Positions 4,490 to 11,924 of a stretch of DNA of 28,907 nt are shown here, in pieces. Within the stretch, counting starts at the first letter, position 1, and each line of letters begins with the position of its first letter. Under the pieces are notes generated by a model. That model did not search any database. It saw nothing but the letters and a program-made list of their open reading frames with translations, and was not told the DNA's origin. Source of the stretch: Candidatus Saccharimonadota bacterium (lineage in GTDB: Bacteria; Patescibacteriota; Saccharimonadia; Saccharimonadales; UBA10212); assembly GCA_043731125.1 (NCBI GenBank), contig JAYTJL010000038.1, positions 1 to 28,907 on the forward strand, in the 5' to 3' direction. Position numbers and translations under genes: made by a program.

Positions 4490-4561
4490 GGGGGTTTTTG
4501 TTGGCCTCGCTTCAATACTACCAGATTGTTATTAATAAGATTAGTGCGGTATAATCATAAC

Positions 4562-4879
4562 ATGTCTACCAATAGAAAAGAAACCAGAAAATATGCCGAC
4601 CGTAGGGAGTATTTAAAGTTGGCTGTGGCGCGGCGACGCAAATGTCTAAAGTTAAGAGCAGTTGAATGCTGCGGGGGAAAGTGTCAAATATGTGGCTACA
4701 GCAAACACCCTGCAGTGCTGGACTTTCATCATATTGACCCAGCTTCAAAGAGTTTTGGGATAAGTTCTGGGGGGTATTCTAGGTCTTGGAGCAGCATTGA
4801 AGAAGAGATAAAAAAATGCATTTTAGTGTGCCCAAATTGCCGTAGAGAAATAGAACTAAGGATCATTGATATAAGTTAA
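4562..4879 (+). CDS. Small free-standing HNH-type endonuclease with zinc-finger (105 aa)
   Basis: CQICGY..LDFHH..EEIKKCILVCPNC; ATG 4562 lies 6 nt after TATAAT (4550-4555); the ORF-track start at 4475 overlaps the divergent ABC gene. Confidence 0.75.
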   Translation: MSTNRKETRKYADRREYLKLAVARRRKCLKLRAVECCGGKCQICGYSKHPAVLDFHHIDPASKSFGISSGGYSRSWSSIEEEIKKCILVCPNCRREIELRIIDIS

Positions 4880-4892
4880 GCCGCATAAGCGT

Positions 4893-4922
4893 TTGACGTG
4901 TATCCGTAATTACCCCTATAAT
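4893..4922 (+). promoter_or_regulatory. Sigma70-type promoter driving leader plus tRNA-Asn
   Basis: TTGACG (4893-4898), 18 nt, TATAAT (4917-4922). Confidence 0.75.
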
Positions 4923-5083
4923 CAATCAGTTGTCATGTGCACATTACAATTTGGTTGATATTTCTCTGGCAGTATGGTCAGTCTAGTGCGCTCCTCGGGA
5001 TGAGCAGCCCGACAAAATGTATTCCATTTTGCCGGCGCGACGTGCAAACCCCGAAGGGGTGTCTCATAAGGCGAAGCCGTTAT

Positions 5084-5394
5084 TCCGGGGTAGCTCAGCG
5101 GTAGAGCGGGTGGCTGTCGTTGGCAGCCTATCTCAAGTAATTAGATAGTGAAAACGGGGTGAATTGCAGGAAATCTAAGTCCGCACGTAGTGTCGGATAT
5201 GACAATCTGCAGCCAAGCCGAAGTTAGGTTAATAGACATCGGAAGGTTCAGAGACTAGAGAGTGAGCCTAACAATAATCTCTCAATAGCGCCCTGGTCGC
5301 ACTCAGTGCGATATGAAATAGTCCACACCACTATGAAAATAGAGGGCAAAGTGTAACCACTAGGTCGCTGGTTCGAATCCAGTCCCCGGAGCCA
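5084..5394 (+). tRNA. trnN: tRNA-Asn(GTT) interrupted by a group I intron; exons 5084-5117 and 5354-5394
   Basis: Joined exons fold TCCGGGG/CCCCGGA acceptor, GCTC/GAGC D arm, GGTGG-CTGT^TAA-CCACT anticodon arm, GCTGG-TTCGAAT-CCAGT T arm, discriminator G, encoded CCA. Confidence 0.93.
5118..5353 (+). ncRNA. Self-splicing group I intron (236 nt, no ORF) at tRNA position 35/36; has a P7.1-like insert (subgroup IA-like)
   Basis: P1 GGCTGT/GCAGCC with U5117.G5123 wobble; terminal G5353; P GAATTGCAGGAAA 5161-5173, Q AATCTGCAGCCAAG 5204-5217, R GTTCAGAGACTAG 5246-5258, S GAAATAGTCC 5315-5324; P3 CGGGGTG/CGCCCTG; P8 TCGCAC/GTGCGA; P9 CTAT-GAAA-ATAG. Confidence 0.92.
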
Positions 5395-5395
5395 G

Positions 5396-5418
5396 AGAAA
5401 TATTAATCAATCCAAGCT
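5396..5418 (+). repeat. Direct repeat copy 1 (att-like), immediately after tRNA-Asn CCA
   Basis: AGAAATATTAATCAATCCAAGCT; 22/23 identical to 9617-9639. Confidence 0.85.
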
Positions 5419-5459
5419 GCAATGAAAGAACCGTCTGAAGAGGCGGTTTTTTCATTGCA
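5418..5459 (+). terminator. Long hairpin downstream of tRNA-Asn (probable intrinsic terminator)
   Basis: TGCAATGAAAGAACCGTC pairs with GGCGGTTTTTTCATTGCA using two G-U pairs; the T-run follows the GC core. Confidence 0.7.
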
Positions 5460-5568
5460 CCCCTGCAACCCAGTTCTATCAAAGTCACTCCTGTCCCTTG
5501 TGTGAGCTATTCGAACTAGGGTTACAACTTGGGTTTGTATACTGTAGAAAGTGGTGTTTAATAAGATT

Positions 5569-6228
5569 ATGAATAACAAAAGTACATTTTTAACGACAGC
5601 CAGGGCTACAGGTCTACTTTATCTGGGCTTGGCAATAACCGGGATAATATCTTATGCAGTTATACGAAGCCAGATATTTGTAGATGACAACCCAGCAGAG
5701 ACGTTGAATAATTTAGTAAATAAAGAAATGCTTTCTCGAATCGGTATTGCTGGGGAACTCGCCCTGGTTTTGTTCCAGGCGTTGACTGCACTATGGTTTT
5801 ATAAGCTGTTTAAAAAGATTGATTCTTTTGCAGCTGTTACACTAACAGTTTTTGGAATAATTAATGCAGTGGCGATACTCGTTGCATCTGCATTCTGGCT
5901 GAGCGCTCAAACTACTGCAGGTTTTGGTGGTTCTGCTAATAATGTCTATAACTTGTTTCAAATCCACGACCAGATTTGGGTAGTATCTGCCGTATTTTTT
6001 GGTCTTTGGCTAATTCCAATGGGATATCTTGCAAAAAAGGCTAAAATGCCAAGTGCTCTTGCGGCCTTCTTGATATACGGAGGTATTTTGTATGTATTGT
6101 CGGCTTTTTTAATGGTATTACTACCAGATCAGAGCGACATAACAGATACGATAACAATTCCAGCTACAATTGGTGAGTTCTGGATAATTGGTTACTTGCT
6201 ATTTAAAAAACCAAAAATATCAACGTAG
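5569..6228 (+). CDS. DUF4386-like multi-pass membrane protein
   Basis: TARATGLLYLGLAI, LFYKLFK..D...A, VFFGLWLIPMGYL, IPATIGEFWIIGYLLFK; alternative GTG start at 5551. Confidence 0.75.
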   Translation: MNNKSTFLTTARATGLLYLGLAITGIISYAVIRSQIFVDDNPAETLNNLVNKEMLSRIGIAGELALVLFQALTALWFYKLFKKIDSFAAVTLTVFGIINAVAILVASAFWLSAQTTAGFGGSANNVYNLFQIHDQIWVVSAVFFGLWLIPMGYLAKKAKMPSALAAFLIYGGILYVLSAFLMVLLPDQSDITDTITIPATIGEFWIIGYLLFKKPKIST

Positions 6229-9526: not shown

Positions 9527-9616
9527 TCACGACAATTAATAAGTGTAGCCTAGCATAAAGCGAACCTAAACCAGGTGGTTGGGATAATTGGTTGGAATCT
9601 AGCTGCGGGGGCCCGC

Positions 9617-9639
9617 AGAAATATTAATCATTCCAAGCT
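9617..9639 (+). repeat. Direct repeat copy 2 (att-like)
   Basis: AGAAATATTAATCATTCCAAGCT; directly abuts the TATACT -10 of uppP. Confidence 0.85.
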
Positions 9640-9653
9640 ATACTAGTGTTAGT

Positions 9654-10457
9654 ATGGACGCTTTGCATGCAATCATTCTGGGCATAGTTGAAGGACTGAC
9701 TGAGTTTTTACCCATTAGCAGTACGGGCCATTTAATTATTGCCGAACACTACATTCAGTTTAAAGATACTGCAGAAATTTTTACAGTGTCGGTGCAGGCA
9801 GGAGCGATAGCGGCTGTCATTTGGTACTACCGAAAAGATATATCTTCTAGAATTAGCGGGTTTTTCCGGCGGGACAGGGCACAAGTCGAATTTATGAAAA
9901 ATCTGTCCATAGCTACAGCACCGGCACTGGTGCTAGCCTTCTTGCTTAAAGATGAATTTGATAAATATGCCAAGCCATCAGTTGTAGCATTTGCTCTCAT
10001 AGCCGGTGCTGGCGTGTTGTGGTGGACAGATAAAAAGTTTCCGCCTCATAAAGAAAAAGCCGTACCAAACCTTGATAAGCTAACTACCAAAAATGCACTT
10101 TTTGCTGGGCTGGCCCAATGTATCGCGATCATACCAGGTGTATCGCGAAGTGGCGCCTCTATAGTTGGTGGTATGTTTGGCGGAATGAGTAGAGTTAACT
10201 CAGCTGCGTTGTCTTTTTATATGGCTGTCCCGATCATTTTACTTGCTACGGCTTATAAACTGTTTAGTGGTCGCAACGAACTAGCTATCAGTGTTGATGG
10301 AGGGGTGCAAAGCATTGTCATTGGAGTGGTAGTGTCGTTTGCGGTGGCATTAGTAGCAATATCTTGGCTCATTAAATATGTATCCAATCACAGTTTCAAG
10401 CTGTTTATTTATTACCGAATTGTGCTTGGGCTGTTAGTTCTGGCGCTACTAAATTAG
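9654..10457 (+). CDS. uppP: Undecaprenyl-diphosphate phosphatase
   Basis: LGIVEGLTEFLPISSTGH; AQCIAIIPGVSRSGASI. Confidence 0.96.
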   Translation: MDALHAIILGIVEGLTEFLPISSTGHLIIAEHYIQFKDTAEIFTVSVQAGAIAAVIWYYRKDISSRISGFFRRDRAQVEFMKNLSIATAPALVLAFLLKDEFDKYAKPSVVAFALIAGAGVLWWTDKKFPPHKEKAVPNLDKLTTKNALFAGLAQCIAIIPGVSRSGASIVGGMFGGMSRVNSAALSFYMAVPIILLATAYKLFSGRNELAISVDGGVQSIVIGVVVSFAVALVAISWLIKYVSNHSFKLFIYYRIVLGLLVLALLN

Positions 10458-11743: not shown

Positions 11744-11924
11744 ATGCTGGAACCCCGTGTGAATCGGGGACTGTGCCGCAACGGTAAAAACCATGAGAAA
11801 CCCCTCCGCGGTTTCTCATCGCGCCGGGAGAATGAAATACATTTTCTCGGGCTGCTCATCCGGGTATAAAGATGAGCAAGTTGAAGTCCGATACAGCAAC
11901 ACGTAAACTAACTCCCGTGCAGGA
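11744..11924 (+). ncRNA. Cobalamin (B12) riboswitch, variant with a three-hairpin P6 extension
   Basis: TGCTG-GAA-CCCC-GTGTGAATC-GGGG-A-CTG-TGCCG-CAA-CGGTAA ... AAG-TCCG-ATA-CAGCA four-way junction; downstream hairpin TCC-CGTGCA-GGA can kiss L5 TGCCG. Confidence 0.78.

Follow-up and report, generated by a model that had tools for sequence, protein, structure and literature searches.

A tRNA-Asn(GUU) gene from a Candidatus Saccharimonadota bacterium is split within its anticodon by an ORF-less group I intron with a P7.1-type hairpin and a P11-like pairing

The window, meaning the whole 28,907-nt stretch of Candidatus Saccharimonadota DNA analyzed here, contains at positions 5084 to 5394 a tRNA-Asn(GUU) gene that is split between nucleotides 35 and 36 by a group I intron. 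The elements recognized at and around the gene are given below.

4562 to 4879, + strand: free-standing HNH endonuclease-like gene, 105 amino acids, related by blastp to ORFs that long Asn.4Ug introns contain
4893 to 4922, + strand: promoter-like site, TTGACG-18-TATAAT (11 of 12 matches), in a region conserved upstream of tRNA-Asn in the same-genus genomes G001 and G002
5084 to 5117, + strand: tRNA-Asn 5' exon, tRNA positions 1 to 35, ending in anticodon nucleotides G34 and U35
5118 to 5353, + strand: group I intron, 236 nt, ORF-less, class Asn.4Ug
5354 to 5394, + strand: tRNA-Asn 3' exon, from U36 to the encoded CCA
5430 to 5452, + strand: terminator-like hairpin, ACCGUCU-GAAG-AGGCGGU, followed by a U run; read from the sequence, visible in a spurious Rfam alignment, and absent from the consensus scan

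When the two exons were joined, ARAGORN recognized a 75-nt tRNA-Asn(GTT) with an encoded CCA, a U1-A72 pair, and G73. The first-pass annotation had placed the split inside the anticodon at 35/36 and had read the junction CTGT^TAA as restoring the anticodon GTT. Both statements were borne out, since the spliced product is canonical and an intact ortholog has the same sequence. That ortholog is in G001, a genome of the same genus, where an uninterrupted tRNA-Asn gene is identical to the spliced product of the window gene and reads CTGTTAA. The G001 sequence aligned to window positions 4875 to 4970 (93% identity), 5081 to 5117 (100%), and 5354 to 5418 (98.5%). The last two matches flank a gap of exactly 236 nt, and 5118 to 5353 is therefore an insertion. 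It lies between positions 4 and 5 of the tRNA-Asn loop, with U at position -1 and G at the omega position.

The rule that U precedes the 5' splice site and G the 3' splice site allows two choices, one giving the Asn anticodon GUU and the other a Thr-like UGU. The second choice, with both sites two bases upstream (CU^GU...AAG^UGUAA), is the one taken by ARAGORN with its intron option, which miscalled the split gene as Thr(tgt); run on the unspliced window, ARAGORN called no tRNA. The expectation that standard tRNA finders can miss such genes thus proved correct. A Thr identity for the gene is nonetheless so improbable that we set it aside: the intact G001 gene fixes the junction as CUGU^UAA, U5115 forms a Watson-Crick pair with A5125 while U5117 forms an invariant U.G wobble, the genome already has a tRNA-Thr(UGU) and has no other Asn gene, and the combination of U1-A72 with G73 suits a bacterial tRNA-Asn.

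The intervening sequence belongs to the group I family. The Rfam model RF00028 matched 5082 to 5345 over its full length (model positions 1 to 253) with 73.7 bits, against a gathering score of 50, and an E value of 3.5e-17. The conserved helices P3 to P9, the P3/P7 pseudoknot among them, are present, and the match was the sole group I hit in the 645-kb, 80-contig, 81%-complete genome. At Rfam gathering thresholds the entire 28.9 kb yielded the group I intron only, with no cobalamin riboswitch reaching threshold. Short homologs, 27 of them distinct, were aligned with MAFFT together with 8 nt of each flanking exon (alignment A2), and a P1 to P9 model of our own, pseudoknots included, was evaluated on the result. 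The resulting intron elements are as follows.

5112 to 5128, + strand: P1, exon GGCUGU (5112 to 5117) with the guide GCAGCC (5123 to 5128) and a 5-nt L1, CGUUG; four of six pairs invariant
5119 to 5122, + strand: possible P10 strand GUUG, opposite 3' exon UAAC (5354 to 5357)
5129 to 5147, + strand: P2, with bulged C5134 and a GUAA (GNRA) tetraloop at 5137 to 5140; 7/7 pairs covary, 78% paired, some rows being misaligned by MAFFT
5155 to 5161, + strand: P3 5' strand, partner at 5289 to 5295; 100% paired, double changes in four of seven pairs
5165 to 5211, + strand: P4 (5165 to 5170 with 5206 to 5211) around P5/P5a; covariation in the 27 homologs
5212 to 5247, + strand: P6/P6a, with a 13-nt L6 holding UUAGG (5224 to 5228); all six P6a pairs covary, 97.5% paired
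5251 to 5257, + strand: P7 5' strand, with bulged A5252 and G5253-C5323 as the presumed guanosine-binding pair; invariant in 27/27 and fitting the Rfam consensus
5258 to 5283, + strand: P7.1-type hairpin, stem 5258 to 5262 with 5279 to 5283 and a 16-nt loop, U GAG CCUAA CAAUAA U; 5/5 pairs covary, 97% paired
5267 to 5271 with 5224 to 5228, + strand: P11-like tertiary pairing of CCUAA in L7.1 with UUAGG in L6; covariation
5289 to 5295, + strand: P3 3' strand; covariation in the 27 homologs
5296 to 5312, + strand: P8 hairpin; four of five pairs covary, and the deviations of the window copy are compensatory
5319 to 5324, + strand: P7 3' strand, after J8/7 AUGAAA; invariant, Rfam consensus
5328 to 5345, + strand: P9, with a GAAA tetraloop at 5335 to 5338; 6/6 pairs covary, loop GAA invariant and the fourth base nearly so
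5353, + strand: omega G, the guanosine with which the intron ends; G in 27/27 homologs

Across the 27 homologs, 94.0% of the cells of this model were paired, compared with 34.5 to 43.5% when the 3' partners were slid by one to three columns. Double changes occurred at 42 of 66 pairs, and none of 500 shuffles reached any of the observed measures. The helices that covary are P3, P4, P5, P6a, P8, and P9, whereas P7 is invariant in all 27 sequences and covariation is uninformative for it. The U5117.G5123 wobble of P1 at the 5' splice site, which had been picked out from the window sequence, is likewise kept in 27/27, and the terminal G that had been noted proved to be just as constant. The proposed P10 fared less well: its four base pairs can form in the window, but the helix is not conserved, since no more than 4 of the 27 homologs have at least four contiguous pairs; in the subclade that these form, a fifth pair covaries. 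Relative to the consensus at columns with at least 88% agreement, the window intron differs at 7 of 132 columns, all of them in P4 and P8 and all keeping a standard pair, as would be expected of a ribozyme under selection. One A x A mismatch is present in P6a of the window copy and another in P9. A pseudoknot-free minimum free energy fold recovered P1 to P6, P8, and P9, with a modest z score of -2.1. A helix of AGGUUCA with UGAGCCU in that fold was considered as a conserved feature and rejected, the variable triplet of L7.1 covarying with L6 and not with that strand. No ORF of 40 or more amino acids is contained within 5118 to 5353, in agreement with the earlier description of the intron as ORF-less and with no homing endonuclease reading frame inside it; a 43-amino-acid frame at 5017 to 5148 extends just into the first 31 bases of the intron.

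The hairpin between P7 and P3', seen in the first pass as a GAGAG/CTCTC stem, has compensatory changes at every pair. Its loop is nearly invariant except for a short triplet that is complementary to the P6 loop. An exact L7.1/L6 complement was found in 78 of 80 distinct introns from four host classes, compared with 50 +/- 3.5 after shuffling, and 0 of 2,000 shuffles reached 78. The other two introns (L064 and L103) hold an uncompensated G x A in this pairing. For all three loop positions that vary, a mutual-information scan of all columns gave the predicted L6 column as the top partner. The pair types observed were CCU/AGG, CCC/GGG, CUC/GAG (in both Asn and Met hosts), UCC/GGA, and GCU/AGC. 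Their recurrence across host classes argues for a real contact, although kinship among the introns inflates the counts. P11 has been defined as a tertiary pairing of the P7 extension with P6 in subgroup IA (Jaeger, Westhof and Michel 1991, referenced and depicted in PMC12088405), and the L7.1 x L6 pairing predicted from covariation corresponds to it, that is, to a known contact.

The subgroup of the intron can be considered in this light. The hairpin between P7 and P3' is a P7.1 as found in subgroup IA, and P11 is present as judged by covariation, so that two hallmarks of IA occur together. A second extra helix, P7.2 or P7.1a, is absent from the window intron, where the single hairpin fills the 29-nt insert from 5258 to 5286; larger inserts between P7 and P3' were seen only in G031 and in the seed Mga42 of the Williams alignment. 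The IA-like architecture claimed at the outset gained support from the covarying hairpin and the P11-like pairing, with the missing P7.2/P7.1a as the reservation. The closest structural comparison is the IA1 intron of the Candida albicans mitochondrial LSU gene, which (PMC12088405) has, like the window intron, an extra helix between P7 and P3' and a loop pseudoknot P11 with an extended P6; the window intron is much smaller, with one extra helix, and is without P7.1a/P7.2 and P9.1. Its host, too, is of another kind, a bacterial tRNA and not an organellar rRNA or a phage mRNA.

The classical IC3 tRNA introns are those of cyanobacterial and plastid tRNA-Leu(UAA) at site 3, of tRNA-fMet at site 2, and of Azoarcus tRNA-Ile(CAU) and Agrobacterium tRNA-Arg(CCU) at site 5. 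They share with the window intron a compact length (200 to 250 nt), a location in the anticodon loop, a P1 built from the anticodon stem-loop, and GNRA loops in L2 and L9. They differ from it in site and host tRNA and in being without the P7-P3' helix and P11. It could be argued that the window intron is at heart such a classical IC3-type intron that has acquired an idiosyncratic hairpin, its P7.1 and P11 resembling IA through convergence and not ancestry. The GNRA loops in L2 and L9 would fit this, the core strings GAAUUGCGGGAAA, GGUUCAGAGACUA, and GAGAUAGUCC agree well with the generic Rfam consensus, and there is one extra helix where typical IA introns have two, P7.1/P7.2 or P7.1/P7.1a. 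When 50,697 phage records were searched with the intron by BLAST, only short, weak matches (70 to 77% identity) to unannotated stretches came up, which do not help in assigning a subgroup. Yet an IC3 intron should have a short J7/3 without an inserted helix, and in the window intron a 29-nt insert forms a conserved hairpin. True IC3-like tRNA(CAU) introns in the same genome family have a J7/3 of 2 to 3 nt and core strings unlike those of the window intron. The hairpin and its L6 pairing are, moreover, common to Asn4, Met5, Asp4, and Met2 hosts in several phyla, the hairpin appears in tmRNA introns as well in the Williams alignment, and a pairing of the P7 extension with P6 is, in the sources cited above, a described IA feature. 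We therefore consider convergence on an IC3 background unlikely, and lean toward an IA-type family, as opposed to a modified IC3, as the better of the two descriptions.

With an IA-type fold of this kind, an ordinary group I self-splicing reaction with a P7.1/P11 brace would proceed along the following lines. The pre-tRNA would be transcribed from the promoter-like site at 4893 to 4922, which, judged by its sequence, probably drives it. P1 would arise from base pairing of tRNA nucleotides 30 to 35 (GGCUGU) with the guide sequence GCAGCC within the intron. The first attack, after U5117 (the U of the wobble), is predicted to come from an external guanosine that occupies the G5253-C5323 site in P7. 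The terminal G5353 would then enter the guanosine site, and the freed 3'-OH of U5117 would attack after G5353, joining the exons into the anticodon loop CUGUUAA. P5 contains a motif resembling the 11-nt GAAA receptor (CCUAAG..UAUGG in the family, UCUAAG..UAUGA in the window), with the receptor role suggested by the motif; together with GAAA in L9 and GUAA in L2, it makes the usual tetraloop braces likely. The L9 GAAA would presumably dock on the receptor-like motif in P5 and the L2 GUAA on a helix, probably P8. The pseudoknot of the P7.1-type hairpin loop with L6, which the covariation supports, would brace the core as an equivalent of P11.

Whether the cell depends on this reaction was addressed by a genome-wide search for a second tRNA-Asn gene. 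In the 81%-complete genome 38 tRNAs were counted, with no second tRNA-Asn among them, and BLAST with the intact G001 tRNA-Asn retrieved only the two halves in the window genome; for this organism, another copy might still lie on a piece missing from the assembly. The same search retrieved only split halves in G002, G008, G019, G031, and G049, genomes that are 93 to 100% complete. Weaker BLAST matches were tRNA-Arg and tRNA-Thr and were discarded. Because the only detectable tRNA-Asn in these six genomes is split, intron removal is needed to read Asn codons, and splicing is probably essential, as had been suggested for the case that no second gene existed.

This dependence bears on the idea that the intron no longer self-splices, the gene being a pseudogene or relying on a protein helper. 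The P6a and P9 mismatches of the window copy and the departure of its P8 from the family consensus might be read in that direction, and the neighboring HNH copy has Arg for a conserved His, a hint of decay at the locus. The exact 5117-to-5354 junction does occur in metatranscriptome contigs, yet with flanking sequence that does not match the window, so that these contigs may stem from intron-less alleles of other organisms and cannot be assigned to the window locus; matches from RNA runs covered only conserved exon or core words. Loss of splicing is nevertheless very improbable in our estimation, given that the split gene is the only tRNA-Asn found in six genomes, that all invariant core positions are kept with seven of seven deviations compensatory, and that identity to the intact gene of G001 is 100% for the 5' exon and 98.5% for the 3' exon. 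We hold it to be highly likely that 5084 to 5394 is the single tRNA-Asn(GUU) gene of the organism and that its intron, between U35 and U36, is a self-splicing group I intron, catalysis being deduced from conserved structure.

The intron is a new copy of an already catalogued class. The view that bacterial tRNA introns are all of IC3 type and at other sites, on which the first-pass annotation had drawn, is out of date. In Williams KP (bioRxiv 2020, 10.1101/2020.01.27.920355), the bacterial tRNA intron classes were expanded from 4 to 21, and these include Asn.4Ug, Lys.4Ug, Tyr.4Ug, and Asp.4Ug. The suspicion voiced in the first pass that novelty might be limited was justified, since class Asn.4Ug with the same hairpin is in that catalogue. 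The seed Pam37.Asn.4Ug, so far as it is printed there, shares with the window intron the host tRNA, site 4 (35/36), the U before the 5' site, the terminal G, the core strings, and a P7-P3' hairpin with a GAG..CCUAAC..AAUAA loop. By-eye comparison with its printed Stockholm row showed the same P7, hairpin loop motif, and P3' string. Compared with this seed, the window copy has a 5-nt L1 and a free-standing HNH gene upstream. The 2020 preprint assigns no subgroup, leaves the L6 x L7.1 pairing unannotated, and is silent on endonuclease genes. A further preprint, Nakagawa et al. 2025 (bioRxiv 10.1101/2025.07.03.662931), is cited in PMC12641178 for a "novel insertion site" in Patescibacteria tRNA genes.

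Class Asn.4Ug has a wide distribution in Saccharibacteria and in other Patescibacteria. A group I hit (E value of 0.001 or lower) was obtained in 17 of 61 related genomes, and six of the 17 carried the Asn intron. An exact uninterrupted anticodon arm was found in ten relatives by a pattern search in which exact matches alone were used, a search with three mismatches being as noisy as its reversed control. Suspicious arm matches in intron-bearing genomes were fetched and turned out not to be tRNAs. A search of species-representative genomes with the hairpin-loop pattern gave at least 119 loci, at least 36 of which are Asn site 4, in Saccharibacteria (including Candidatus Saccharimonas aalborgensis), Peribacteria/Peregrinibacteria, Magasanikbacteria, and Parcubacteria. 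At least 51 others are tRNA(CAU) site 5, mostly in Isosphaeraceae, with a few in Asp4, Phe2, Met2, and Leu2.

The tRNA(CAU) site-5 loci, from Isosphaeraceae and other Planctomycetota (among L022 to L138), have the same P7.1 hairpin and a P11-type GGG/CCC pairing, and their carriers include cultured strains such as Singulisphaera acidiphila (L030). To at least 29 pattern hits (28 loci) the script assigned no tRNA host, and these may sit in other genes; they come from Clostridia, Bacteroidota, Bacilli, Chlamydiae, and one MAG labelled as an archaeon, and include L024, L028, L041, L047, L053, L054, L057, L060, L062, L075, L081, L096, and L100. The relatives also contain a second tRNA intron family, IC3-like and lying in tRNA(CAU) between positions 33 and 34 (L006, L007, and L009 to L012, in G021, G046, G014, G027, G043, and G045). 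Five of these six loci have no adjacent 5' exon, and what precedes P1 there resembles the end of a reverse-strand ORF.

About 200 nt separate the HNH gene from the split tRNA-Asn downstream of it. The predicted HNH protein is homologous over its full length to the L1 ORFs of Asn.4Ug introns of 540 to 558 nt (48 to 56% identity, E values down to 1e-38 by blastp); the Pfam HNH model scored 19.5 bits, below its cut-off of 21.4. Among 42 Asn.4Ug loci, the HNH gene is within L1, the P1 loop, in nine. It is free-standing upstream on the same strand, at a distance of 0 to 207 nt, in at least six distinct species including Candidatus Saccharimonas aalborgensis, and lies downstream on the opposite strand in one; no HNH gene was found in the flanks of the remaining loci. 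In a tree of the HNH proteins, one branch parts the intron-internal from the free-standing copies (support 91/90). The window copy alone reads CPNCR where the others read CANCH, a His-to-Arg change in the CxxCH motif that may have left it inactive.

Collaborative homing, in which an endonuclease gene that stands free is paired with an intron that has no ORF, was reportedly described by Bonocora and Shub and by Zeng and colleagues in 2009. The window locus resembles those cases in having an ORF-less intron beside a free-standing homing-endonuclease-like gene, here with homologs inside the same intron in relatives. They differ in that the earlier cases concern phages and protein-coding genes, while the window locus is in a tRNA gene of a bacterial chromosome and its predicted endonuclease has the His-to-Arg change. 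A broader proposal can be made, which we offer tentatively and would not yet favor over its negation. A lineage of IA type, marked by P7.1 and P11 and apart from IC3, may unite Asn.4Ug with the related introns at site 5 of tRNA(CAU) in Planctomycetota and in other tRNAs, such as Asp (site 4) and Phe (site 2); the three HNH arrangements seen in Saccharibacteria may be a natural series for the merger of endonuclease and intron; and the window locus may be a cis-linked collaborative homing pair, possibly decaying. If true, the endonuclease upstream, downstream, or in the P1 loop would represent a series leading from a free-standing gene plus an ORF-less intron to a mobile intron. With one HNH family placed in three ways relative to one intron, the question of how mobile introns arise could become testable.

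These results leave the established picture intact, as both the intron class and the tendency of the phylum to have introns in its tRNA and rRNA genes were recorded before. They indicate that a genome of 0.6 to 0.8 Mb apparently relies on a ribozyme for an essential tRNA, and they provide in the intron family a compact (about 230 nt) example of an IA-type P7.1/P11 brace with rich natural covariation. There is also a practical consequence. Because tRNA finders miss the gene or name it Thr, saccharibacterial genomes can seem to be without tRNA-Asn, and estimates of completeness or decoding capacity are distorted.

The surroundings of the gene differ further between the window and G001, which is without the intron, the HNH gene, an insert in the tRNA leader, and a downstream stretch of about 4.2 kb. 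In G001, a match to window positions 9589 to 9841 directly follows tRNA-Asn and overlaps the 3' end of the tRNA. This arrangement marks window positions 5419 to about 9615 (about 4.2 kb) as inserted sequence, with a duplicate of the tRNA 3' end at its flank. Upstream, an insertion of about 107 nt in the tRNA leader (4973 to 5079, core 4998 to 5067) is missing at the same site in G001 and carries a 70- to 80-nt element forming a long hairpin. In an Rfam scan of 4500 to 5600 at E values below 1, neither the conserved sequence that precedes the tRNA nor the leader element had a match. The element has at least four copies in the genome at 77 to 86% identity, including 11793 to 11861 on the - strand of the window, G000:C36:140-220, and G000:C19:4560-4632. 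Its core at 5002 to 5040 also occurs in metatranscriptome contigs at a depth of 17 to 65, with flanks unlike those in the window.
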